Origin: Escherichia phage vB_Eco_OMNI12
Strand: one strand, 5' to 3'
Sequence record: OL362041.1
DNA length: 64,000 nucleotides
This document shows, one piece after another, positions 3,811-63,999 of this stretch. The number at the start of each line of letters is the position of its first letter. The stretch's first letter is position 1. The position numbers and the translations under genes were made by a program. The notes beneath the pieces were generated by a model, which saw only the letters and a program-made list of their open reading frames with translations, was not told the DNA's origin and did not search any database.

Positions 3811-5517
3811 TTATGGATAGGTATAGATGATACCAGTTTCTAAAGCAGTTTTATGAATGATGTATCCATTGCGTGATTCTTGAACATCAACTTCTGGATA
3901 GTCTTTAATCATCTTCTGAAGAGTGTAACGATGCAGGTAGTATTTACTATCTGGGTCGTCAGTTTTCCAATCTTTACCTTCTTCGGTCATTTTTTGGATT
4001 TCATCCATAACCCACCAACCGCACCAGATATAAGCTGAAGTACGATGTGGAAGAGGATGAACATAAGGCAATTCACCTTCTGGTTCTGGAGCAACTTTAT
4101 CAGTTACCTGAACTTGACCTTCTGCTGTAATAGTTTTGCTATCGTAATCAGTTGCAGTAACGACAGCAGTAACTTCAATAGTTTGACTTCCAACAGATGA
4201 GGTATCGACAGTATATACGTTAGTTGACCCTTCTACAGGAGAAGAATCTTTCTTCCATGAGTAAGTAATTTGTGCTTCTTCTGGAGCACCCGTAACATTA
4301 GCCGTAAATGTAGCCGAAGCATCTTGCTGAACGTTAATAGAAGGAGGAGTCAATGTAACCTGTGGATTCATTGTTTTCTTATTAACAGTCAATGATACTT
4401 CATTAGAAGTAACTTCCTTTTCATTGTAATTTTCTGCAGTTACTTGCGCTACACACTTAACTGTTTTAGCTCCAACTGTGGTAGGAGTATAGTTAAATGT
4501 AGTAGTAGTTTCTCCATCGACCAGAGAACCGTCAACATACCACTGATACGTAGCAGACGCTCCTGGTGGCTGTGAATCCAAGGCAGCAGTAAATTGAACT
4601 GGGGTTCCAATTACTCCGGCAGCAGGATTAGCAGGAGTTACGGCTAACGTAGTTGTCTGTGTCTTCTTATTAACTGTTAATGATACTTCATTAGAAGTAA
4701 CGCTTAGTGCATCATAATCTGTTGCTGTTACTTGCGCTACGCATTTAATTCTTTTTACTCCACTTGTAGTTGGAGTATAGCTAAATGTAGCAGAAGTCGC
4801 TTCACCAATTTGAGAATCATCTACATACCACTGATACGTAGCAGATGCCCCATCAGGTTGAGAAGCTAAGGCAGCAGTAAATTCAACGGCTGTTCCAATC
4901 ACTCCAGCTGGAGGACTATCAGGAGTTACTGCCAAGGTAGTCGTCTGCGTCTTTTTATTAACAGTCAATGATACTTCATTAGAAGTAACGCTTAGTGCAT
5001 CATAATCTGCCGCAGTTACTTGAGCTACACACTTGATTTTTTTAACTCCGCTTGTGTCAGGAGTGTAATTGAATGTAGCGTCAGTTGCTTCGTCTACAGG
5101 AGAACCGTCAACGTGCCATTGATACGTAGCGTTTGCACCTGATGGCTGTGAAGCTAAGGCAGCGGTAAATTCAATTGGAGTTCCAATCACTCCAGCATCA
5201 GGGCTACCAGGAGTTACTGCCAAAGTAGTTGTTTGTGTCTTATTTTGAACTGTGATAGTTGTACTAATTTCAGCTGTTTCAGGTTCAGATTCTGCAACTT
5301 GATTGGTTGCAACTACTTTAATAGTCTTTTGACCGGCAGGTCCTTTTAGTACATAACTAAAAGTTGCTGACGTTTCTTCCTGTGGAGCGTCGTCTACAGT
5401 CCAAGCATATGTAATAGGTCCATCTCCAGTTTGACCACTGGGTGTAGCAGTAAACTGCTTAGTTTCATCAATAACCCCTGTCGGTGTTTTAGGAGTTATA
5501 TCAACTGTAAAAGTCAT
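3811..5517 (-). CDS. hoc: Hoc outer capsid decoration protein, expanded (568 aa) with extra Ig-like domains
   Basis: Ser/Thr-rich Ig-like repeats plus C-terminal capsid-binding region; position after 24.x as in T4. Confidence 0.85.
   Translation of the reverse strand: MTFTVDITPKTPTGVIDETKQFTATPSGQTGDGPITYAWTVDDAPQEETSATFSYVLKGPAGQKTIKVVATNQVAESEPETAEISTTITVQNKTQTTTLAVTPGSPDAGVIGTPIEFTAALASQPSGANATYQWHVDGSPVDEATDATFNYTPDTSGVKKIKCVAQVTAADYDALSVTSNEVSLTVNKKTQTTTLAVTPDSPPAGVIGTAVEFTAALASQPDGASATYQWYVDDSQIGEATSATFSYTPTTSGVKRIKCVAQVTATDYDALSVTSNEVSLTVNKKTQTTTLAVTPANPAAGVIGTPVQFTAALDSQPPGASATYQWYVDGSLVDGETTTTFNYTPTTVGAKTVKCVAQVTAENYNEKEVTSNEVSLTVNKKTMNPQVTLTPPSINVQQDASATFTANVTGAPEEAQITYSWKKDSSPVEGSTNVYTVDTSSVGSQTIEVTAVVTATDYDSKTITAEGQVQVTDKVAPEPEGELPYVHPLPHRTSAYIWCGWWVMDEIQKMTEEGKDWKTDDPDSKYYLHRYTLQKMIKDYPEVDVQESRNGYIIHKTALETGIIYTYP
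4381..5244 (-). repeat. Three tandem ~288 bp coding repeats (Ig-like domain triplication) inside hoc
   Basis: Protein repeat KKTQTTTLAVTP...SNEVSLTVN occurs three times at about 90 percent identity; DNA repeats visible near 4372, 4660 and 4940. Confidence 0.85.
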
Positions 5518-5526
5518 AAGTTATCC

Positions 5527-6207
5527 TTATTTTAATGTTACGAAAGAAGAGTTGCGTGTTTCACGAATTAGAACTGATCCGTCACGGTTAATGTAATAAA
5601 TTAAGCTAAATAAAGTTTGGTGTGCTGACGCATGTTCAAAACTAGTTGGGTGAGATTTCCAATCAGGAGTTTCAGCAATCCATTGATAAATCCACCAAGG
5701 AACAGTACAGAATCCTGGATTTTTTCCAATCAACTGAAGATTCGGGCTAAAGTTTTCCGGAAGAGTAAATACAGACTGCTTTTCAGATTCAATAATCTCA
5801 GCTACAGCCTGTTCAAATTTTTCTTCAACAAATGGAGTATCTTCAATCAAAACATCGGTATTTTCAGGAATTTTATCTGTTTCTACTACTTCAATTTTAA
5901 TGTCAGATTTAACCGGAGAATCAATCAAAAGTGCTGCTTCTGGATTGACTTCTTCATCGTCATATTTTAACCCCTCTGCAGCATCAGCAGCATCAATTAA
6001 GTCTTTAATAGATAACCCATCAGTCTCCGGCATAGGTTCACTAGCGAGCTTCTGGAGAGCTTCTTCAATATCATTAACGATATTATCAAAAGATTTATTC
6101 TTTTTGACCTTTATACCAAACTGTTCAGCATATTCAGCTAATTTAGCTTTAGCTTCTTTATTATCATCAAGAGCCTTCAGCTCTGCAATATAATCTTTAT
6201 CTATCAT
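5527..6207 (-). CDS. inh: Acidic protein at T4 inh position (putative prohead protease inhibitor)
   Basis: 226 aa, highly acidic, located between hoc and uvsW. Confidence 0.5.
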   Translation of the reverse strand: MIDKDYIAELKALDDNKEAKAKLAEYAEQFGIKVKKNKSFDNIVNDIEEALQKLASEPMPETDGLSIKDLIDAADAAEGLKYDDEEVNPEAALLIDSPVKSDIKIEVVETDKIPENTDVLIEDTPFVEEKFEQAVAEIIESEKQSVFTLPENFSPNLQLIGKNPGFCTVPWWIYQWIAETPDWKSHPTSFEHASAHQTLFSLIYYINRDGSVLIRETRNSSFVTLK

Positions 6208-25839: not shown

Positions 25840-26237
25840 TATAAATTCTCTTTTAAATGAAAATGCAGGACTTATTGGCATTGCCTGCGCAAGCCCTCAA
25901 GGGGAACATAGGTTTTTTGATATTTAACGACCAGGATAACCATAAACCCGTCATCATACCTTATAGCTCTTATCTGTTGCACACCGTTAGCTTAAAGGTT
26001 CCGGGTTCGATTTCTCGAGGATAAGATATATACTGATGGATATATAGGCCTTGAGGCGTACTCCCGATTGGCCATCACCTCGGGGTAGCATGCACTTGCC
26101 GCTATAAGAATAACATTCAAGAGGTACACCGTAAAACTGCCGGGGTCTTAAAACTATAATGATTCGCAAATCATTAATCAGACAGTTCGACGGCTCCTCG
26201 TTTTAACTTCACACTAAGGCAGTGACTCTCCAATAAA

Positions 26238-26486
26238 TTACTTCAGTGTTACCACAAAGTGACGAACTGCTTTTCGTGCAGCAGAAGCCAGAGGCTTAGC
26301 ATATTTAAGTTCATCTTTTTCCTGAAGCTCAGCAGCTAATGCAGTTTGAGCAGGATTCAGATGTTTGAAATAACGCAGGATTTCAAGAGCTTCGGCTTCA
26401 ACATCAATAGATGCGCCATAGTTTTCGTGACCATTATTCCATGCGTTTCGTTGCAGTTCAAGAGCGTGTTGTAATTGTTTAATCAT
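26238..26486 (-). CDS. 82 aa protein adjacent to gene 31; possibly rIII (lysis inhibition accessory)
   Basis: Size and position next to gene 31; the assignment rests on map position only. Confidence 0.4.
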   Translation of the reverse strand: MIKQLQHALELQRNAWNNGHENYGASIDVEAEALEILRYFKHLNPAQTALAAELQEKDELKYAKPLASAARKAVRHFVVTLK

Positions 26487-26633
26487 TTAAAAATTCTCGT
26501 TAGAGATTAAAACTCGGTAGTCACGTTCTTCTGAATTTCATCTTCTTTCGACAGATCTCTCAGTTGTAGACTACCACATAGAATTGTTCGGTTAACTTAT
26601 TATTCCGACACCCAATTCATATTATTATTTATA

Positions 26634-26969
26634 TCACTTATAAAGACATGGAATAGCTTTATAGTGACAGGTAACGAATTTTTGTTTAATTTCTTTTGGC
26701 TGCTTAAGACCCAGAGCTACAAAAGGGTGTGGAACGTTTCGAATTTGACCAACTGGAAGAGAAGTCAAATCACCAACTTCACAGAAACCTTCAGGAACAT
26801 CAGGACCGACAGAGTGAACTACACACAGTTCAGGAACTTCACCTTGAACACGTTTACCGATAATAAGTCCTGATTCTGTAACTTCTTCATCACCGGCTTG
26901 TGCAGGTTCAGAAACTAAAATAACATATTCACCGACAGCACGAATTGGTAGCTGTTGTACTTCAGACAT
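26634..26969 (-). CDS. gp31: Co-chaperonin gp31 (GroES functional analogue)
   Basis: 111 aa; [19 protein letters not shown]... recognised as gp31. Confidence 0.9.
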
Positions 26970-26999
26970 CGTTTTTCCTTTTTGTTAACAGATGAATTA

Positions 27000-27024
27000 A
27001 TAATAACAAATAATTCTTAAAGCA
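27000..27024 (-). promoter_or_regulatory. Middle promoter (MotA box) upstream of gene 31
   Basis: On the - strand AAATGCTTTA, 12 nt spacer, TATTAT. Confidence 0.45.
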
Positions 27025-27025
27025 T

Positions 27026-27334
27026 TTATTTACCAATAAATTGGAGCAAATGCTCAACTTTCATACCATTAACGGAAATCAATTTGTCAATAGAAAAACC
27101 TCGCCATGCACCAAGTTCAACATCAAATACTGGAATCATATCAGTAGATTCTTTCCGAGTAGATTCAGTCAATTTACCAGTTTGCATGGTTGGCATAAAG
27201 TCAGCATCGCGAGTACCTTTCATAACACGAATAGTACCATCAGACTTTTCAAAAACTACGTTTGAAACACCCATGGACAATTTAGTTTTCAAAATTTCAC
27301 GAATTGCTACTTTTTGTTCAGTCGTCAGTTTCAT
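27026..27334 (-). CDS. Hypothetical protein (31.1 position)
   Basis: 102 aa ORF. Confidence 0.55.
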   Translation of the reverse strand: MKLTTEQKVAIREILKTKLSMGVSNVVFEKSDGTIRVMKGTRDADFMPTMQTGKLTESTRKESTDMIPVFDVELGAWRGFSIDKLISVNGMKVEHLLQFIGK

Positions 27335-27571
27335 TTATTTACCTATTACAGTTTTAATATGAGTTGTTCCACGTTCTTTAAGAGTGGAAAGTAATTTTTG
27401 GCATTTTTCTAAATCAGATTTCCAACTATGTGGTCTATCAATACAAACCCAGTTTGACTTATAATACTGCTTCCATTTAGAGAAAAAATACTTCTTATAC
27501 TCTACAGCAAATGAAATGTTCTCATTGGAATAAGAACTAATTGCTGTGAGCTGTACCAAACGAAATTTCAT
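27335..27571 (-). CDS. Hypothetical protein (31.2 position)
   Basis: 78 aa ORF. Confidence 0.5.
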   Translation of the reverse strand: MKFRLVQLTAISSYSNENISFAVEYKKYFFSKWKQYYKSNWVCIDRPHSWKSDLEKCQKLLSTLKERGTTHIKTVIGK

Positions 27572-28152
27572 TATTCACCACAGAATTCGTTGATATTTTC
27601 CCAGTTTAACTTATTTAAGTTTTTCTTAGGAACATTAAACACTTCAATACCTGCATTTCGCAGAATATCATCCCAGCCAGGTTTATTTTTATCGTATGTT
27701 TCACAATAAACCAGCTTTTTAATTCCAGATTGAGCTATTGCTTTTGCACAATCTGGGCAAGGAGAAAGTGTTACATACATAGTAGCACCTTCAATTGAAG
27801 AACCGTTTCGTGCAGCAAACAAAATCGCATTTAGTTCAGCATGAATTTCATTTTTAGACGACCATTCAGAGTGCGCGCTACGATGTTCTTTCGCCAATAC
27901 AAAACGATCAGTTGAACCAAATGATACACATTCAGGCTTATGACCTTGAATGATAGTATGTTTAGGTTTATTCAGCAACCAACCTTGCTCAGCAGCATAA
28001 TCACAACAGTTCACACCACCTGCAGGTGAACCATTATATCCAGTAGAAATAATACGTCCATTCTTTTCAATTACTGCTCCTACTTTCCAGGAGCAACATT
28101 TTGATTCTTGTGATACTAAATATGCAATTTGAAGTACTGTACTCGCTTTCAT
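27571..28152 (-). CDS. cd: dCMP deaminase
   Basis: 193 aa; zinc-binding HAELNA...PCPDC deaminase motifs. Confidence 0.9.
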   Translation of the reverse strand: MKASTVLQIAYLVSQESKCCSWKVGAVIEKNGRIISTGYNGSPAGGVNCCDYAAEQGWLLNKPKHTIIQGHKPECVSFGSTDRFVLAKEHRSAHSEWSSKNEIHAELNAILFAARNGSSIEGATMYVTLSPCPDCAKAIAQSGIKKLVYCETYDKNKPGWDDILRNAGIEVFNVPKKNLNKLNWENINEFCGE

Positions 28153-40618: not shown

Positions 40619-40727
40619 TTTATTCTCCTTAGCAAGCTTTAATCAAAAGATATAAACAGACCAACATAACTGCTGCCATAATATAAGGTGCGAACATTTT
40701 CTTTTCTCCATTAGTTTTGATAGGGTA

Positions 40728-58010: not shown

Positions 58011-58238
58011 TTACTTAATGTTCAGATTACGAACTTCGATTTCGTCTTCATGGGCAAAATCAAACTGTTTGAATTCTGTGTCACCTTTAAATTTAAAAAT
58101 CATTGTGAAGAAAGTCAGAACACCAGGTTTTTCTTCACGAACTCCACAGATATCATATTCAATACCATCTACAACCAGTTTGTTAGCAGTCAGAGCATTT
58201 TTAGCTTTAACGATTTCGTTTTCGATTTTAAATTTCAT
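58011..58238 (-). CDS. Hypothetical protein
   Basis: 75 aa ORF. Confidence 0.5.
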   Translation of the reverse strand: MKFKIENEIVKAKNALTANKLVVDGIEYDICGVREEKPGVLTFFTMIFKFKGDTEFKQFDFAHEDEIEVRNLNIK

Positions 58239-58287
58239 TTTTTGTATCTCCGGGTTGTTTGTTTCAGTTCATTTATTTGATAGTTGT

Positions 58288-58316
58288 ATAGTACCACAGT
58301 ATGCTTTGGTTGTAAA
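58288..58316 (-). promoter_or_regulatory. Early promoter (TTTACA-N17-TACTAT)
   Basis: Read on the - strand; upstream A/T element identical to 41468-41510. Confidence 0.6.
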
Positions 58317-58340
58317 CCGTTTTGTGAAAAAATTTTTGAA

Positions 58341-58373: not shown

Positions 58374-58523
58374 TTACTGCATGACTGTGATAACTGTCAT
58401 GATAACACGTTGAATTCCGAACGCAAGAAGACCTCCTGCTACGGCAGGAACAACACCTAAACCCGCCAGTAAAATGCCACCAGATACTAATGCAGCGCTT
58501 GTGATACCAATGAATGGACTCAT
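58374..58523 (-). CDS. Small hydrophobic membrane peptide (49 aa), below ORF-track threshold
   Basis: ATG overlaps the gene 52 stop (ATGA); GAGG upstream; translation MSPFIGITSAALVSGGILLAGLGVVPAVAGG... Confidence 0.4.
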   Translation of the reverse strand: MSPFIGITSAALVSGGILLAGLGVVPAVAGGLLAFGIQRVIMTVITVMQ

Positions 58524-59848
58524 TTGATTTCCTCTAAATCTTTGGTGTATTCTGTAACTACATCAGTAGTTTTCCAATATTCGTTTTCTTCTTTTTTGGC
58601 TTTAGCTTCTTCAGCAAGTTTCTTTGCTTCGTCGGAAGTCATATGAAAAATGTTCATTCCAACTAGTTTATCAACATAAGAAGAATACATATCAATTTTA
58701 GAAAGTTCTTCGGTCAGTTCTTTGCGAGTTTTACCTTGTACAACAATTTCACCTGAAATTACTTTCTTAATGAAATGTGCCTTGGCAAAAGCTAAACGAA
58801 ATGCTGATTCAGTTTCTTTGATTTTGTTATCAATTCGTTTTTGGACATAAGTTTTACGAACTTCAACGAAGTCTTTGATTAAATCAACTACATTATCGTA
58901 AACTTGCAGCTTTCCTTTCTCATTAATGACGGTAATATTCTGGGAACGACGCTCAATCAACCCGAAGTCTTTCATAATTTTTGCATGGCGTTCTTCTTCA
59001 TTATCGCTCAAAGAGTATTCTTTTCGGAATTTAACTTTGAAGCCAAAGCCATGCTCACCACAAGCATCATCCCATGTAATGAAGCCTTTATCTTCAAGCG
59101 GGTCTAAGATTTTACTCACATAAGTTTCACGATCATACTTATATGGAATCTCAGTGATATGCATTTGAGTTCGTGAAGTAAACTTATATGTTCCACGAAT
59201 TTCATATTGCCCATCAATTTCAACGACTTCACCACGAAATTCTGGGAATTCTACCTTCGGTTTAGTTACTTTCTTTCCTTGAAGAGCTTGCAGTACAGCT
59301 TTCTTGACAGAAGAAACACTATGAGGAAGAATGTAAGTTGCATAACCAGTTGCAATACCGGAAACGCCATTAAGAAGAACAGTAGGAATAATAGGCAAAT
59401 AGAAAGCAGGCGGAATGTGTTCTTTATCTTGATGTACTGGAGCATATTCAGTATCTTTATATACGTTATAGAAATTTTTACTTACACGAGCAAAAATATA
59501 ACGACTTGCTGCTGCCTTTTGGACAGTACGAGAACCAAAGTTTCCTTGACCGTCTAACAGAGGAAAGTTATTATTCCAAGTGTTAGCCATCAAAGCACCT
59601 GCGTCTTGCGCAGAGTTTTCACCATGATGATATCCAAGGTCCGCTACACCGCCTGCGATAGAAGCGAGTTTGTGAAACTTATCTTTATTTCCTCGTGCCA
59701 AATCAAGAGCTCGAGCAATAACAAATCGTTGAACTGGCTTAAATCCGTCAATCATATTTGGAATGGCACGATTTTCAACCGTGTACATAGCATAAGCCAA
59801 TGCTTCATTATCAATGATACTTTTTAAATCACGATTATTCAGTTGCAT
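58520..59848 (-). CDS. gp52: DNA topoisomerase II medium subunit gp52
   Basis: 442 aa; topo II DNA-cleavage domain region. Confidence 0.9.
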   Translation of the reverse strand: MQLNNRDLKSIIDNEALAYAMYTVENRAIPNMIDGFKPVQRFVIARALDLARGNKDKFHKLASIAGGVADLGYHHGENSAQDAGALMANTWNNNFPLLDGQGNFGSRTVQKAAASRYIFARVSKNFYNVYKDTEYAPVHQDKEHIPPAFYLPIIPTVLLNGVSGIATGYATYILPHSVSSVKKAVLQALQGKKVTKPKVEFPEFRGEVVEIDGQYEIRGTYKFTSRTQMHITEIPYKYDRETYVSKILDPLEDKGFITWDDACGEHGFGFKVKFRKEYSLSDNEEERHAKIMKDFGLIERRSQNITVINEKGKLQVYDNVVDLIKDFVEVRKTYVQKRIDNKIKETESAFRLAFAKAHFIKKVISGEIVVQGKTRKELTEELSKIDMYSSYVDKLVGMNIFHMTSDEAKKLAEEAKAKKEENEYWKTTDVVTEYTKDLEEIK

Positions 59849-59852
59849 AAAT

Positions 59853-59993
59853 TTACCATACTAGTGAATGTAGTGCCATAATAACATCAGAAATGAAAAG
59901 CACGACTTGAATTAATCCGAACATTATTCCGTAATATAATGCTATCAATAAAATAGCAAGGGCTAATGAATAGCCCAAGATTTTCTTAATCAT
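59853..59993 (-). CDS. Small membrane peptide (46 aa), below ORF-track threshold
   Basis: Start overlaps the stop of the upstream ac-like gene (ATGATTAA); hydrophobic. Confidence 0.35.
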   Translation of the reverse strand: MIKKILGYSLALAILLIALYYGIMFGLIQVVLFISDVIMALHSLVW

Positions 59994-60144
59994 TAGTAGA
60001 TAACAACACAAATGTTAAATATGCACACATACCCTGAGCTAAAGCTTGCGAAAACACACTGCTGGCATCAATACAGATAGTTAAAACACATGCTACTATC
60101 CAACAAATAAATGAAATAACTCCTAATAATTTTGCGATATTCAT
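59986..60144 (-). CDS. ac: Ac-like small membrane protein (52 aa)
   Basis: GAGGAAAAT-ATG; hydrophobic 52 aa; position between stp and gene 52. Confidence 0.5.
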   Translation of the reverse strand: MNIAKLLGVISFICWIVACVLTICIDASSVFSQALAQGMCAYLTFVLLSTND

Positions 60145-60151
60145 ATTTTCC

Positions 60152-60232
60152 TCACTGGCGTCCGAAGACGCCTTTAGTTTTAAGATTATTACGATAGAAC
60201 TGCATCACGTGTTCGTTGTGGAAATTACTCAT
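60152..60232 (-). CDS. stp: Stp peptide (26 aa)
   Basis: Translation [26 protein letters not shown]; start overlaps the ndd stop (TAATG). Confidence 0.6.
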
Positions 60233-60690
60233 TAATATGCCTGCAAAACGAATTTAAAATTATCAGCCAACATACGGTTCATTTCTTCAAGTGTTTGATA
60301 CTCAGAATGATGATTACGAGTAAACGCTAAAGCTAACTGTCCTTTTCCAAATCCCGTCGTCAGAGGTTTCATCTTAGAAGCAGGCAGATAAAATACTGCG
60401 TATGGAACATTGTTATTTGCAATAGTACGTGCAAGCTGAGACCGACGTTGACGAATATGACTTAGAACTGCACTGAATCCTTGCTTAGAACGCTGATTAC
60501 CTACATAAAATCGTGCAGACACACATGGATTACTAAATGGACGACCATCTAATTTACTTACTAAAAAATAAAATCCAGGTTTAGATAAAATATCTTTATG
60601 CGGAGTTCCCAAAAACCACTCACCACCCTTGATTGTACCAATAACAGTAGCGCCTGCATTATTCAGATCAGTAACAGTCATGTATTTCAT
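60232..60690 (-). CDS. ndd: Ndd nucleoid disruption protein
   Basis: 152 aa from the internal ATG with GAGGAA upstream. Confidence 0.7.
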
Positions 60691-60750
60691 ATTAATTTCC
60701 TCTAAATTATTTTCTACTCCAAGGCCGCATGAATACACGCGGCCATTAAA

Positions 60751-60966
60751 TTAATCGTCGCAGTCGACGCTCAATTCCCAAAACTCTTCTACGGTATAAG
60801 TTTCAGTATCATTTTCAATACAGAAACGTTCATTACTGTTATTTGCTAAAGTAGCATTAACTGTCATTTTTTCGCTAGTGCTCTTAAGAGGTGAAATACG
60901 AATTAACTGATCACCGTTATCTAAACAAAAAATTTCACCAACTTTTACATCTTTAAAACTTTTCAT
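60751..60966 (-). CDS. Hypothetical protein
   Basis: 71 aa ORF. Confidence 0.5.
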   Translation of the reverse strand: MKSFKDVKVGEIFCLDNGDQLIRISPLKSTSEKMTVNATLANNSNERFCIENDTETYTVEEFWELSVDCDD

Positions 60967-61081
60967 AATTCACCTCAAGGAGTATAAAATCCAAACGCAG
61001 TTGTTGACCATCCCATCCAATATGGAAAATTTGCACCAATGTAAAACATAAGAATATAAAACCAACCGCTCAGCAAATTCA

Positions 61082-61279
61082 TCATTTTACACCGTTCCAA
61101 ATTGTTTCAACTACGGATTTTAAACCATTTTGATGAATATCAATTCCGACTACTGTCATCAAATAGATTCCAACTACAACTGAACCTAAGGCAAAAATCA
61201 GCATGAAAATGAATAAAGCCGGAAAAATATTATCGAAAAACCATTCAATAAATGTAAAAGCACTGCGTTTACGCTTCAT
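61082..61279 (-). CDS. Small membrane protein (65 aa from internal ATG)
   Basis: GAGGAAAAT-ATG; hydrophobic core FPALFIFMLIFALGSVVVGIYLM. Confidence 0.45.
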   Translation of the reverse strand: MKRKRSAFTFIEWFFDNIFPALFIFMLIFALGSVVVGIYLMTVVGIDIHQNGLKSVVETIWNGVK

Positions 61280-61286
61280 ATTTTCC

Positions 61287-61400
61287 TCACATAAATCCAA
61301 AGTAAGCGTTTAATACATCAATCATTAAAACGATTGGGAATATACTCAAAACTATTAGTATTATAACTACATTCCATATAGCTTTAACAATCTTTTTCAT
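61287..61400 (-). CDS. Small membrane peptide (37 aa from internal ATG)
   Basis: GGAGGAACAGAAA-ATG directly after the early promoter; MKKIVKAIWNVVIILIVLSIFPIVLM... Confidence 0.4.
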   Translation of the reverse strand: MKKIVKAIWNVVIILIVLSIFPIVLMIDVLNAYFGFM

Positions 61401-61428
61401 TTTCTGTTCCTCCGTAGTTGATAGGGTA

Positions 61429-61457
61429 ATAGTACCACGGAAGAACAGTCTTGTAAA
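61429..61457 (-). promoter_or_regulatory. Early promoter (TTTACA-N17-TACTAT)
   Basis: Read on the - strand. Confidence 0.6.
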
Positions 61458-61643
61458 CAACTTTTTTAAAAATATTCGTAATAAATGTGAATACCAATCA
61501 CTACTGCCGAAACTTGTGCAACCCACCACGCACAAGCAATAAGCACAGAATTCAAAATTTTCATAATAACCTCATCACAAAAGTAAATGTTAAACAAATT
61601 AATGGAATACTAATTAACCAAACGAAACACCAACATAATGAAC

Positions 61644-61907
61644 TCATAGTTCAATCTCAACGATTTCCAAGTGTTTTTGTTTTATTGCCTTTTTAACACA
61701 ATCATGGACTAAATATGACCATGAATCATTATATTCTCCATTAACTAATCGTTGGAGATCTTCACGTGATGATAAGTAAGGTTGATCTGATTCCCATTTT
61801 GATAAAAATACTGCAGTAAAAATATCTCCTTCATCTGTAGTTGAAGTCGTAAATGCAATAAATTCACCGGTAATTTTATGTTTAGCGTAATAAAATTTAA
61901 ATTTCAT
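61644..61907 (-). CDS. Hypothetical protein (87 aa from internal ATG)
   Basis: GGAGGAGTAAAA-ATG after the early promoter at 61935-61963. Confidence 0.5.
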   Translation of the reverse strand: MKFKFYYAKHKITGEFIAFTTSTTDEGDIFTAVFLSKWESDQPYLSSREDLQRLVNGEYNDSWSYLVHDCVKKAIKQKHLEIVEIEL

Positions 61908-61934
61908 TTTTACTCCTCCGTAGCTGATAGTTGT

Positions 61935-61963
61935 ATAGTACCACGGTCCTTGTGGTATGTAAA
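61935..61963 (-). promoter_or_regulatory. Early promoter (TTTACA-N17-TACTAT)
   Basis: Read on the - strand, lies inside the 3' end of the denB ORF. Confidence 0.55.
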
Positions 61964-61981
61964 CTGTTTTGTGAAAATTTT

Positions 61982-62539
61982 TTAAATGGAAAGATACCAT
62001 CCATTGTAGTTGCTTTTTCTTACAACCTTACGAAGGTCTTCTCTGTCACCGATGAACTTCGGAGTGTACTGGATGACACCTGGATGAATTTCTTTAGTGT
62101 TGAATATAATTATACAGTCAGCGACTTGATGATTTAGAATGGGCCCTAGATTTATTCCAGAACCGTATGGATACTCTCCGCTGCATCCTGTTGTTACAGA
62201 AATCCAACGTGAGCCAGTTTGATGTGTCTTAACTTCTACACGAAGCCCACAGTATTTTGGATGTGCTAAAACATCCCACGCGTATGTATATGGATCATCG
62301 ACATCTTCTTGACCTTTATTAACATACCCGCTTAGCCAATCTGCTACAAAAAACTCTGCGTATACAGCAATACGACATCTTTCAATAACTTCTGCTTTAT
62401 CCTGGTTCGGGTTTTGTTTTAAAGAGTATCTTGCAGTATCAGCAATTTTGACCTTCATTTCACTAGTCAAGTCACTGTTCGATAGGGTAAATGTCGGAAT
62501 CTGAAATAGTCTCTGTAAACCCGGATTCGTTTTCTGCAT
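61982..62539 (-). CDS. denB: 185 aa protein at denB position (endonuclease IV candidate)
   Basis: Size and map position between rIIB and ndd. Confidence 0.5.
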   Translation of the reverse strand: MQKTNPGLQRLFQIPTFTLSNSDLTSEMKVKIADTARYSLKQNPNQDKAEVIERCRIAVYAEFFVADWLSGYVNKGQEDVDDPYTYAWDVLAHPKYCGLRVEVKTHQTGSRWISVTTGCSGEYPYGSGINLGPILNHQVADCIIIFNTKEIHPGVIQYTPKFIGDREDLRKVVRKSNYNGWYLSI

Positions 62540-62801
62540 TTAGACTTTCCTTTTTACCACTGAGATAAGCGTTATATACTTTAAGAGTGCCGTAATAAAT
62601 TCGGTCATTTTCATCTAAAGACTCGCGGTCAAGTTCATCGAGCTCCTTTTTATCCATGACTATAACATCATTACAGTAAAGAAACCCAAGTTTTTCGTGA
62701 CCAAACTCAAATTTATTACAGTACACAATATTAGCGTGATGATTTCCGTGCAGTTTAATCTCTTTTATGTCGGAATCACCGATATTCATACAATAAATCA
62801 T
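62472..62801 (-). CDS. Hypothetical acidic protein
   Basis: 109 aa ORF; its 3' end overlaps the denB-like start in another frame. Confidence 0.45.
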   Translation of the reverse strand: MIYCMNIGDSDIKEIKLHGNHHANIVYCNKFEFGHEKLGFLYCNDVIVMDKKELDELDRESLDENDRIYYGTLKVYNAYLSGKKESLNAENESGFTETISDSDIYPIEQ

Positions 62802-62818: not shown

Positions 62819-62834
62819 AAGGGCCGAAGCCCTT
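62819..62834 (-). repeat. GGGC-TTCG-GCCC hairpin, copy 1
   Basis: The ~20 bp AAGGGCCGAAGCCCTTATTT is repeated at 63047. Confidence 0.4.
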
Positions 62835-63032: not shown

Positions 63033-63046
63033 AATTTTCCTCAGTT

Positions 63047-63062
63047 AAGGGCCGAAGCCCTT
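63047..63062 (-). repeat. GGGC-TTCG-GCCC hairpin, copy 2
   Basis: Immediately downstream of the rIIB stop. Confidence 0.4.
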
Positions 63063-63999
63063 ATTTAAATTGTTCAGTAACGTCTTCAACTACTTCGTAT
63101 TGGCAGGTACGCATTTTAGCATCGTTGTAATCAATCGGAATTGATACTACATCACGCGGATGTACTTTAACTTTTACAACTCGGCTAGTTGAACTGCCAA
63201 AGTGACGAATATAAGATTTAGAACACACATGCAGACCGCGAGAACAAGTTTGTGTATCATCGTCATTCACACGAGTACGTGGCATTTTAACTACTTTACC
63301 AGGGCTGTTATCAAAAGTATTTGAATGACAGTCAAAGTAATTACTGCGAACTACTTTCCAAGCATAGAAGTAACCGTCTTCTGTAATTTCAATATCGTTT
63401 GCTACCAAGAAATCAAAGAGTCGAGATACCGCTTTTTGGCTTGGGTTTTCCAACAGATTTTCCAAGAACGGAAAATAGAATTCAAAGTTTTCGCCTTTTT
63501 CCATCGAGTCAAGAATACGATCAACCAAACCAGATCGCAATTCAATATTTTGATAGAACAAGCTTCCACCTTCAATTCGAACATCGCCGGAAATATATTT
63601 TTCAACAGCGCGACGAACATTAATTTTTTGTGCCGCTTCTTCCAACTTATCCGCTACAAGCAGATTAAGAATTTCCTGGAAGTTTGAATGAGTATTAGGA
63701 GTTGCGTTATAAGTTACACCGTCAACAGTAATTGAAATGAATTTTTTAGATGCATTCCAAATAATGTCAGATTTAGCAACTGGAGCAATAACTGCATCGC
63801 TATTAACTTTAACTGTAATATCACCACTAATAGTAACTTTAGGGCGTTTAGCTTCTTCAGCATTTTTCAAAACACGACGGATTGTGTCAACCGATACACC
63901 TTGCCAATCAGCCAATTCCTGCTGGGTGTAATTACCACTTGAATACAGTTTAACAATTTCAGCTTGTTCGTTTTTGGTCAGGCATTTAATATTGTACAT
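63061..63999 (-). CDS. rIIB: rIIB protein
   Basis: 312 aa; MYNIKCLTKNEQAEIVKLYSSGNYTQQELADWQG... recognised as rIIB. Confidence 0.85.
   Translation of the reverse strand: MYNIKCLTKNEQAEIVKLYSSGNYTQQELADWQGVSVDTIRRVLKNAEEAKRPKVTISGDITVKVNSDAVIAPVAKSDIIWNASKKFISITVDGVTYNATPNTHSNFQEILNLLVADKLEEAAQKINVRRAVEKYISGDVRIEGGSLFYQNIELRSGLVDRILDSMEKGENFEFYFPFLENLLENPSQKAVSRLFDFLVANDIEITEDGYFYAWKVVRSNYFDCHSNTFDNSPGKVVKMPRTRVNDDDTQTCSRGLHVCSKSYIRHFGSSTSRVVKVKVHPRDVVSIPIDYNDAKMRTCQYEVVEDVTEQFK

Follow-up and report, generated by a model that had tools for sequence, protein, structure and literature searches.

The stretch between gene 52 and denB of bacteriophage T4 is known from the classic deletion sa-delta-9, a loss of 3.4 kb that extends exactly from 52.1 to denB. 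The mutant is viable, gives a 50% yield and no longer shows the stimulation of phospholipid synthesis, including that of phosphatidylglycerol, that follows infection. This is the sole region-level phenotype on record, and it concerns phospholipid synthesis, not defence. Susceptibility to acridines is controlled by ac. Substitution of residue G38 of T4 Ac leads to resistance, the Ac of phage PP01, which carries an additional threonine, was reported to be still acriflavine-sensitive, and expression of Ac in Escherichia coli sensitizes the cells to acriflavine and ampicillin. It has been proposed that Ac blocks AcrAB-TolC, a mechanism that the literature presents as a hypothesis. T4 Stp is a soluble inhibitor of the type Ic restriction enzyme EcoprrI and activates the PrrC anticodon nuclease. 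Finally, the exchange of ndd.4/.5 in T4 is given in the literature as an example of PeSL cassettes, the promoter-early stem-loop modules by which genes are shuffled in the hyperplastic regions of T4-like phages.

We analyzed the corresponding region in a window of 64,000 nucleotides from Escherichia phage vB_Eco_OMNI12 (sequence record OL362041.1). A preliminary description of this window had read, between gene 52 and denB, a dense cluster of very small genes and had proposed that their products, made immediately after infection, could inhibit host membrane-associated defences or transporters.

Results

Organization of the gene 52-denB region

The window belongs to the genus Tequatrovirus and has 99.6% DNA identity to phage AV119, and at least 80% of the region is covered in 485 phage records. 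The small ORFs match T4 motA.1, 52.1, ac, stp, ndd and ndd.1 to ndd.6 one to one, and the region is the well-known non-essential early stretch between gene 52 and rIIB of T4-type phages. Gene order, orientation, overlaps and early promoters are the same as in the sa-delta-9-deletable region of T4, and the small proteins are 93-100% identical to their T4 counterparts. T4 lacks two ORFs that are present here, one of 87 aa between ndd.6 and denB and one of 75 aa that separates motA.1 from motA. Another difference is the length of ndd.4, which is 37 aa here versus 42 aa as annotated in the T4 record.

All the ORFs of the preliminary description are present on the minus strand, with sizes and positions correct to the base (Table 1). 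From gene 52 to denB, this strand carries 52.1, ac, stp, ndd, ndd.1, ndd.2, a 65-aa gene, ndd.4, ndd.5 and ndd.6. The ndd gene itself is no micro-peptide gene and anchors the cluster. Also encoded in the cluster are two soluble products, that of ndd.1, which is acidic and has 71 aa, and that of the 87-aa ORF preceding ndd.6. Every listed micro-ORF belongs to a PHROG family, and our Pfam scan assigned three of them to a family as well; the copy of Pfam that was scanned gave no match for motA.1, ac, ndd.1, ndd.2, ndd.4, ndd.5, ndd.6, the 87-aa ORF and the 75-aa ORF. The identity of the cluster and the reality of its genes are hardly in doubt. All the listed micro-ORFs have long been annotated in T4, mostly without assigned function, and are already known.

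Table 1. Coordinates of the genes, promoters and RNA elements of the cluster and its flanks, numbered from the first nucleotide of the window.
Feature	Position	Strand	Remarks
early promoter	58288..58316	-	TTTACA-17-TACTAT with TG; follows the stem-loop after motA.1
terminator-like stem-loop	58348..58369	-	after motA.1; with the early promoter resembles a PeSL-like composite
motA.1 orthologue	58374..58523	-	49 aa; after gene 52; phrog_3487, E = 7e-31; annotated in T4
52.1 orthologue	59853..59993	-	46 aa; Pfam DUF7396, E = 4.8e-22
ac (acridine susceptibility)	59986..60144	-	52 aa; phrog_2501, E = 3.7e-25
stp	60152..60232	-	26 aa; Pfam PF08133, E = 2e-21
C(UUCG)G hairpin	60157..60172	-	in the 3'-terminal part of stp; directly precedes the Shine-Dalgarno site of ac
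ndd, nucleoid disruption protein	60232..60690	-	152 aa; Pfam Phage_T4_Ndd, E = 3.5e-95
ndd.1 orthologue	60751..60966	-	71 aa; acidic, soluble; PHROG match
ndd.2 orthologue	60975..61085	-	36 aa; phrog_4135; aromatic-rich
65-aa gene, DUF7248	61082..61279	-	Pfam E = 6.5e-19; predicted single-pass membrane protein
ndd.4 orthologue	61287..61400	-	37 aa; phrog_3098; single predicted TM, basic N-terminus
T4-type early promoter	61429..61457	-	TTTACA, 17 nt, TACTAT, TG; precedes ndd.4
ndd.5 orthologue	61466..61564	-	32 aa; phrog_5011; single predicted TM
ndd.6 orthologue	61561..61647	-	28 aa; phrog_8851; single predicted TM; conserved W..W...IP.IC motif
87-aa ORF, soluble	61644..61907	-	absent from T4; without Pfam match
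T4-type early promoter	61935..61963	-	TTTACA-17-TACTAT with TG; precedes the 87-aa ORF, ndd.6 and ndd.5

The stop/start overlaps are as had been described: ATGA at 52/motA.1, 65-aa gene/ndd.2, ndd.6/ndd.5 and 87-aa ORF/ndd.6, and TAATG at ndd/stp. In addition, ac and 52.1 overlap by 8 nt, and the stop of 52.1 lies 4 nt ahead of the gene 52 ATG. The good Shine-Dalgarno (SD) sites attributed to these ORFs were recovered for only part of them. A strong core (GAGG/GGAGG) is found ahead of motA.1, ac, ndd.4, ndd.5 and the 65-aa gene, whereas SD sites are weak or absent at 52.1, stp, ndd.2 and ndd.6. The latter four begin either at the preceding stop codon or only a few bases from it. Of all the ATG ORFs of 20-70 aa in the window, just eight have both an SD and a TM-like stretch of 19 residues. 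Five of the eight lie within 58374-61564, i.e. in 5% of its length (binomial p = 1.5e-5; 20-fold over the rest of the window). The clustering of the micro-ORFs is beyond chance.

Early promoters, RNA elements and expression in T4

All three promoter sites, each with TTTACA-17-TACTAT and TG, fit the T4 immediate-early type, which is defined by a GTTTAC-like -35 element, a TG-extended TAnnAT -10 element and A/T-rich sequence upstream. Promoter and 5'UTR together are repeated at 58278-58336, 61419-61477 and 61925-61983. A generic sigma-70 scan gave 20 matches versus 19.9 in shuffled sequence, i.e. no excess, and we thus used only the repeated sites of the T4 early type. The MotA-box pattern of middle promoters does not occur inside the cluster, the sole TGCTTTA box being located upstream of motA. 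The C(UUCG)G hairpin was listed by the scan on the plus strand; its stem is palindromic and the minus-strand form was read from the sequence.

The early expression assumed in the preliminary description agrees with the two promoters that precede ndd.4 and the 87-aa ORF, and with the RNAs of the T4 orthologues, which are classed as early. At the protein level, T4 Ndd.1 was seen early by mass spectrometry, and motA.1, 52.1, ac, stp, ndd.2, ndd.2a, ndd.3, ndd.4, ndd.5 and ndd.6 are all given as 'NA' in the T4 proteome time course. Missed detection is expected for tiny hydrophobic peptides, yet there is still no direct proof of protein; our literature search found no T4 ribosome-profiling study. 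All the cluster genes are 'Non-essential' in T4 Tn-seq and 'Not Fit' in CRISPRi-ART, transposons being tolerated at 16/16 TA sites of 52.1. In these published screens, the cluster genes are dispensable on laboratory hosts.

Coding evidence and conservation

Pooled over nine small ORFs, variable sites number 37/22/98 at codon positions 1/2/3 (chi-square p = 3.6e-14). The bias is also seen in single genes such as ndd.2 (4/3/15) and ndd.5 (1/0/10). The pN/pS values of the small ORFs range from 0.08 to 0.27 versus 0.11 for ndd (motA.1 0.09, 52.1 0.25, ac 0.12, stp 0.12, ndd.2 0.13, DUF7248 gene 0.14, ndd.5 0.08, ndd.6 0.27); ndd.4 has just 4 variable sites within Tequatrovirus, so that its pN/pS is uninformative. 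Among 14 Tequatrovirus loci, frame-breaking indels were found only in the T4 reference, in T2 and in one metagenomic contig, and motA.1 keeps 94-100% identity across 13 Tequatrovirus loci.

A scan of IMG/VR with Ndd returned 5 close loci only and no extra diversity, and diverse loci were taken instead from gp52 tblastn matches in GenBank phages. Syntenic homologues of 52.1, ndd.4, DUF7248, ndd.6 and stp were detected at the protein level in other Tevenvirinae genera. Those of 52.1 adjoin gene 52 in Mosig-, Dhaka-, Gapriver-, Jiaoda-, Moon-, Winkler- and Karamvirus, which brings the synteny to eight genera. Homologues of DUF7248 occur in Winkler-, Gapriver-, Jiaoda- and Karamvirus, those of ndd.4 in five other genera and those of ndd.6 in Mosig- and Dhakavirus. 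In 5/5 sampled genera having the DUF7248 gene, ndd.4 lies directly upstream of it. Among the loci sampled, ndd.2, ndd.5 and motA.1 were found in Tequatrovirus only. The check for conservation in relatives, suggested in the preliminary description, turned out in its favour, with the ORFs conserved in Tequatrovirus and several families extending to other Tevenvirinae genera. Judged from their sequences, the micro-ORFs are genuine and conserved genes, most of them apparently for small membrane peptides.

Membrane character of the peptides

The best 19-residue Kyte-Doolittle mean is 2.2-3.1 for motA.1, 52.1, ac, DUF7248, ndd.4, ndd.5 and ndd.6, motA.1 being glycine-rich and very hydrophobic. By hydropathy, these products agree with what is expected of integral inner-membrane peptides, namely a hydrophobic segment of about 19 residues or more and a topology that fits the positive-inside rule. 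Except for ndd.2, the hydrophobic peptides have basic N-termini, and the AF2 models of 52.1 and Ac are helical. Their membrane insertion and topology are thus predicted features. The claim that all the peptides but Stp are hydrophobic single helices is correct for most of them; the exceptions are Ac, with two helices, and ndd.2, which is moderately hydrophobic only (1.17).

52.1, Ac and Stp

The product of 52.1 aligns with the DUF7396 profile over its full length (residues 1-46 of 46), and its AF2 model is one helix, residues 2-45, with a pLDDT of 94. The AF2 model of Ac comprises helices 3-24 and 28-51, a predicted two-helix membrane hairpin. Ac is 96% identical to T4 Ac, with one extra Thr here; the same two helices, broken at D26/A27, and G38 are present in both, and no functionally notable difference was seen. 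The protein thus combines G38 with the +Thr variant. It belongs to the family of about 51-aa hydrophobic proteins (phrog_2501 / PF26944) encoded between stp and 52.1, and its database relatives carry PF26944. A search of a large protein database with Ac returned only near-identical Tequatrovirus proteins, with no distant or bacterial relatives.

Stp, described beforehand as soluble and basic, is indeed 100% identical to the soluble inhibitor of T4 and matches PF08133 (Nuclease_act) over residues 1-26 of 26. Its position, overlapping the ndd stop, is also the same, and we noted no difference. Given this identity, it would here also inhibit EcoprrI and trigger PrrC.

The DUF7248 gene

What is annotated in T4 as ndd.3 and ndd.2a is a single intact 65-aa gene in the present phage. 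The T4 reference record (NC_000866) carries a 1-nt deletion that splits it. The N-terminus of the protein is basic, a single TM segment is predicted, and the C-terminal tail, GLKSVVExIWNG, is conserved. Residues 6-63 align with profile positions 4-57 of 58, so that the TM segment and the tail are in one frame, and the family alignment extends across five genera. Joining ndd.3 and ndd.2a into one gene is a small new point. One could assume that T4 lost DUF7248 by laboratory adaptation; we rejected this explanation because the resequenced T4 'wild' keeps the gene intact.

Discussion

Altogether, the preliminary description was right about real genes, mostly for small membrane peptides and expressed early; none of them is new, all being annotated T4 genes. 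We propose the following course of events. Within minutes of the onset of infection, the host RNA polymerase transcribes the region leftward from the phage early promoters. The polycistronic mRNAs would give rise to the soluble peptide Stp, to two soluble proteins, Ndd and Ndd.1, and to some eight hydrophobic peptides of very small size, translated via their own SD sites or via stop/start overlaps. The hydrophobic peptides would insert into the host inner membrane, where each could act stoichiometrically on a host membrane component, as small bacterial membrane proteins do when they modulate larger complexes. As a whole, this is likely to be the best explanation, an estimate that mainly reflects the identity of the genes; for the general mechanism, i.e. 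the modulation of host envelope proteins by small peptides inserted in the membrane, we consider the chances about even. The interaction of Ac with AcrB, and the peptide to which the lipid phenotype is due, we infer.

Two readings would deprive the peptides themselves of a role. The small ORFs could be chance frames in an AT-rich regulatory spacer, not translated into functional peptides, and F/I/L-rich frames do arise easily in an AT-rich genome; the T4 peptides are also unseen by mass spectrometry and all dispensable. Against this stand the third-position bias and the pN/pS values, the frames kept intact in most Tequatrovirus loci with protein homologues where the DNA has diverged, the genetic phenotypes of ac and stp, and the 20-fold enrichment of ORFs with both SD and TM. 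Such an explanation is largely refuted already, and we regard it as extremely improbable. One would also wonder whether 52.1, ndd.2 and ndd.6 are mainly translated leaders that feed ribosomes to the next gene by stop/start coupling. Gene 52 has no recognizable SD and begins just past the 52.1 stop, the three ORFs have no strong SD of their own and begin at, or close to, preceding stops, and the position of 52.1 beside gene 52 is kept in eight genera. However, the amino acids of 52.1 are conserved across genera (YYG..G, LF, S..W), its identity reaches 83-89% in Dhaka- and Gaprivervirus, where that of gp52 is 70-82%, and pN/pS is 0.25-0.27. Moreover, guides that knock down 52.1 are 'Not Fit' whereas those for gene 52 are 'Fit', and all the TA sites of 52.1 tolerate transposons though gene 52 is essential. 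A mere leader function thus seems improbable to us.

Two other readings concern the target of the peptides. At least one of 52.1, ndd.2, DUF7248, ndd.4, ndd.5, ndd.6 and motA.1 could inhibit a membrane-associated host defence system. Counter-defence genes abound in the surroundings (stp in the cluster itself, rIIA/rIIB versus RexAB, and arn nearby), and early expression, dispensability in the laboratory and evolutionary plasticity form a pattern typical of anti-defence genes. On the other hand, the main text of the T4 Tn-seq study, which includes RexAB, Mokosh and clinical-isolate challenges, does not name the cluster peptides, and in the tables retrieved the q value is 1.0 both for the T4 genes, compared between the reference and the delta-rnlA library, and for their Bas37 orthologues (two comparisons of unspecified conditions). 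A PADLOC scan with all ten peptides gave one weak match only, ndd.4 to KwaA (E = 0.008, 13.8 bits, 28 TM residues); we rejected this relationship as a TM-composition match. Besides Ac and Stp, nothing in the retrieved papers or in PADLOC links the peptides to membrane-associated defences, and the idea of transporter inhibition corresponds to the hypothesis already published for Ac and AcrAB-TolC. The anti-defence screen of Ojima et al. was set aside as a source, since it concerns a different phage. We therefore hold a role in counter-defence to be unlikely. Somewhat more likely, though still less likely than not, is that one or more peptides modify the host envelope to the advantage of the phage itself, as distinct from counter-defence (stimulation of phospholipid synthesis, including that of phosphatidylglycerol, membrane repair after DNA injection, permeability or efflux). 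Supporting this idea, sa-delta-9 loses phospholipid stimulation and half of its yield, Ac expressed alone alters the drug susceptibility of the host, and the fact that ndd.4 and DUF7248 are conserved together in five genera points to an accessory function of a housekeeping-like kind. However, sa-delta-9 also takes out ndd and denB, and the lipid phenotype is not pinned to one gene. Mutants without dCTPase, EndoIV and Alc likewise fail to stimulate phosphatidylglycerol, so that DenB or nucleotide metabolism may be responsible.

A more speculative hypothesis would be that ndd.4 and the 65-aa DUF7248 protein, possibly with 52.1, form a two-peptide inner-membrane module acting on a specific host membrane machine, either that of the phospholipid rise or a membrane-anchored defence complex, Ac being an efflux-pump inhibitor. 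If so, the cluster would constitute a toolbox whose micro-proteins are ligands of bacterial membrane complexes. Ac may represent a naturally occurring peptide that inhibits a multidrug efflux pump. The lipid phenotype of sa-delta-9 maps to the region, and the conserved pairs ndd.4-DUF7248 and 87-aa ORF-ndd.6 narrow where to look first. As a discovery, the cluster adds little, having been in the T4 annotation for decades and in PHROG and Pfam families, and being covered by recent genome-wide T4 screens. The practical yield is an evidence-based gene list for the window together with the ndd.3/ndd.2a correction.

The locus can finally be compared with PeSL cassettes. It shares with them the repeated promoter and 5'UTR, the terminator-plus-promoter composite after motA.1 and the cassette-like presence or absence of the flanking ORFs; it differs in that, of the three promoter copies, the one after motA.1 alone has a clear stem-loop just before the promoter. 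Another comparison lies in the AcrZ-type small bacterial inner-membrane regulators, which have about 30-50 aa and one or two TM helices and presumably bind to a larger membrane complex. The hydrophobic peptides of the cluster resemble them in size, in number of TM helices and in presumed mode of action; we claim no sequence relationship, and the difference is that the peptides described here are encoded by a phage.

Organization and identity of the cluster

Reading of the sequence and translation of the candidates place every gene of the cluster on the minus strand. The micro-ORFs match the lengths and positions claimed in the preliminary description, and the overlaps that it reported were confirmed, four as ATGA and one as TAATG (ndd/stp), with a further overlap of 8 nt at ac/52.1. 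The good Shine-Dalgarno (SD) sites attributed to these genes were found for five of the nine micro-ORFs, which carry GAGG or GGAGG as a strong core at proper spacing; they were not found for 52.1, stp, ndd.2 and ndd.6, which start at, or a few bases from, the stop codon of the preceding gene.

Features of the region in OL362041.1
Feature	Position	Strand	Remarks
109-aa ORF	62472-62801	-	Pfam DUF7418; absent from T4
denB	61982-62539	-	185 aa
Early promoter copy	61963-61935	-	T4-type early pattern
87-aa ORF	61644-61907	-	87 aa, soluble, begins MKFKFYYAKHK
ndd.6	61561-61647	-	28 aa
ndd.5	61466-61564	-	32 aa
Early promoter copy	61457-61429	-	T4-type early pattern
ndd.4	61287-61400	-	37 aa
65-aa ORF (DUF7248)	61082-61279	-	65 aa
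ndd.2	60975-61085	-	36 aa
ndd.1	60751-60966	-	71 aa, acidic, soluble
GC-rich stem-loop	60723-60744	-	GGCCGC...GCGGCC, without T-run; in the 60-nt ndd.1/ndd spacer
ndd	60232-60690	-	152 aa
stp	60152-60232	-	26 aa
C(UUCG)G hairpin	60157-60172		within final stp codons, directly 5' of ac ribosome-binding site
ac	59986-60144	-	52 aa
52.1	59853-59993	-	46 aa
gene 52	58520-59848	-	442 aa
motA.1	58374-58523	-	49 aa
Early promoter copy	58316-58288	-	T4-type early pattern; promoter of the 75-aa ORF cassette
75-aa ORF cassette	58011-58238	-	between motA.1 and motA; absent from T4

A strong terminator-like hairpin lies 3' of motA.1. Two other C(UUCG)G tetraloop hairpins (62819-62834 and 63046-63063) are located 3' of denB.1 and rIIB. 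The 109-aa ORF shares 68 nt with the long form of denB (start 62539); relatives carrying this ORF have denB annotated from a downstream start (477 nt).

The region is 99.6% identical to that of Escherichia phage AV119, and its coverage reaches at least 80% in 485 phage records. The T4 record annotates motA.1, 52, 52.1, ac, stp, ndd and ndd.1 as in the window and continues with ndd.2, ndd.2a, ndd.3, ndd.4, ndd.5, ndd.6 and denB. All ten small proteins match PHROG families (E 1e-16 to 1e-38), and Pfam recognizes 52.1 (DUF7396), Stp (PF08133) and the 65-aa protein (DUF7248), while database relatives of Ac carry PF26944. Given this T4 annotation and these matches, the cluster is already catalogued. 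In public records (L001, L022 and others), labels are often wrongly transferred: "transcriptional regulator" for motA.1, "naphthalene 1,2-dioxygenase" for ndd.2, "endonuclease" for denB.1 and "outer membrane protein" for ndd.5 and ndd.6.

The small ORFs as genuine genes

We counted ATG ORFs of 20-70 aa with an SD and a transmembrane (TM)-like 19-residue stretch over the whole 64-kb window. Only eight were found, and five of them fall in 58374-61564, a span that makes up 5% of the window (p = 1.5e-5). The others are two minus-strand ORFs, 3987-4064 (25 aa) and 40629-40697 (22 aa), and a plus-strand one in the 26000-28000 bin.

Across 14 Tequatrovirus loci, the nine small ORFs have 37, 22 and 98 variable sites at codon positions 1, 2 and 3 (chi-square p = 3.6e-14), and pooled pN/pS is 0.08-0.27, versus 0.11 for ndd and 0.04 for denB; ndd.4, with only 4 variable sites, offers too few for a selection test at this depth. 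Frame-breaking indels were observed only in the T4 reference record, T2 and one metagenomic contig. Because of this third-position bias, low pN/pS and rarity of indels, the frames are under purifying selection as proteins.

The T4 exception provides a small new point: "ndd.3" and "ndd.2a" are a single 65-aa gene. One G of codon 2/3 is missing from NC_000866 (ATGAA-CGT versus ATGAAGCGT), at about position 61274 of the window, and because of this 1-nt deletion the reference splits the DUF7248 gene (61082-61279 in the window; 6049-6129 and 5933-6055 in L004) into a frameshifted 26-aa product ("ndd.3") and an internal start ("ndd.2a"). The gene is whole in resequenced T4 "wild" (KJ477684) and 13 other Tequatroviruses, the Pfam profile extends across both parts, and the 82-nt "ndd.3" of the HIDEN-SEQ T4D annotation fits an extra base at the deletion site. 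A second small new point concerns T2, of which two independent records (L020, PV958097; L027, MH751506) have truncated ac and DUF7248 genes. Nonsense codons lie at ac codon 11 and codon 45 of the 65-aa gene, and a 10-nt insertion alters the C-terminus of Stp; both truncations recur in the annotation of the second record.

Expression and possible functions

In a T4 time course, every orthologue belongs to the early RNA class; at the protein level, Ndd and Ndd.1 were found early, and the entry for motA.1, 52.1, ac, stp and ndd.2 to ndd.6 is "NA", i.e. not detected (PMC9697503, Table S2). Since a literature search also found no T4 ribosome-profiling study, translation of the micro-ORFs is inferred from evolution and genetics.

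Stp is identical to T4 Stp, whose inhibition of the type Ic enzyme EcoprrI leads to activation of the PrrC anticodon nuclease (PMC1484252). Knockout or mutation of ac renders T4 acriflavine-resistant, and E. coli cells that express Ac are sensitized to both acriflavine and ampicillin; a block of AcrAB-TolC by Ac is proposed in the same study (bioRxiv 10.1101/2025.06.30.662393; restated in PMC13250531). Compared with T4 Ac, the window protein retains G38 and has the +Thr variant, reported as still sensitive. Ac had been described as a single helix; because AF2 gives two, residues 3-24 and 28-51, it is predicted to be a hairpin. The 52.1 model is one long helix (residues 2-45). It is unlikely that 52.1 is purely a leader ORF, as its peptide sequence is conserved and neither its knock-down nor its disruption has the effect of losing gene 52, which is essential.

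The T4 deletion sa-delta-9 (52.1 through denB) is viable with about 50% yield and abolishes the post-infection stimulation of phospholipid synthesis, phosphatidylglycerol included (PMC6071114). The T4 small genes tolerate transposons at nearly all TA sites and are classed "Non-essential" (bioRxiv 10.1101/2025.11.20.689424); in CRISPRi-ART all are "Not Fit", versus "Fit" for gene 52 (PMC11879866). In the best-supported picture, the cluster consists of non-essential immediate-early accessory genes, most of whose products would lodge in the inner membrane and act as modulators of host envelope components. Experiments support this for Ac alone, in its action on drug efflux or permeability. An anti-defence role is possible and without support: the main text of the Tn-seq study, which reports defence-specific hits, never names the small genes (bioRxiv 10.1101/2025.11.20.689424), the comparisons retrieved give q = 1.0 for cluster genes, and the sole PADLOC similarity is a 13.8-bit TM match. 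Altogether, the initial observation is confirmed and its interpretation partly supported.

Variable content and cassette exchange

With gp52 as an anchor, the syntenic interval was read in ten other genera. Tevenvirinae generally carry a battery of small TM peptides in the interval from denB to gene 52, with variable content. 52.1 adjoins gene 52 in eight genera, and the slot upstream of it, the ac position, is occupied by divergent or unrelated two-helix peptides; some are Ac-like (45% identity in Shfl2, L024; 34% in Mosigvirus) and others of different types. The latter were seen in Dhaka-, Winkler- and Moonvirus; the stp/ndd-to-52.1 slot was compared in Shfl2, KIT03 (L023) and loci L010-L013 and L019. 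In Winkler-, Moon-, Karam- and Jiaodavirus, the gene after ndd encodes an extra family of 51-57-aa membrane peptides. Where DUF7248 is present (Tequatro-, Winkler-, Gapriver-, Jiaoda- and Karamvirus), its gene always directly follows ndd.4. The 87-aa protein, which lies between denB and ndd.6, matches no Pfam family and is absent from T4, T2 and RB3, comes before an ndd.6-like peptide in Tequatro-, Mosig- and Dhakavirus. Among the loci compared, ndd.2, ndd.5 and motA.1 were confined to Tequatrovirus.

The three early promoter copies (TTTACA, 17 nt, TACTAT preceded by TG) belong to promoter + 5'UTR repeats (58278-58336, 61419-61477 and 61925-61983) that share 63-80% identity across 59 nt. Both ORFs that lie behind the closest copies start with MKFK. 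This repeated unit resembles the recombination substrate known as PeSL (promoter-early stem-loop). The 75-aa ORF cassette is 96.4% identical in DNA to Dhakavirus JS10 over 417 nt, against only about 82% for gp52, which suggests a recent swap between genera. That promoter-flanked cassettes shaped the region is a third small new point, and the cassette sharing with JS10 agrees with the PeSL model (PMC4122927).
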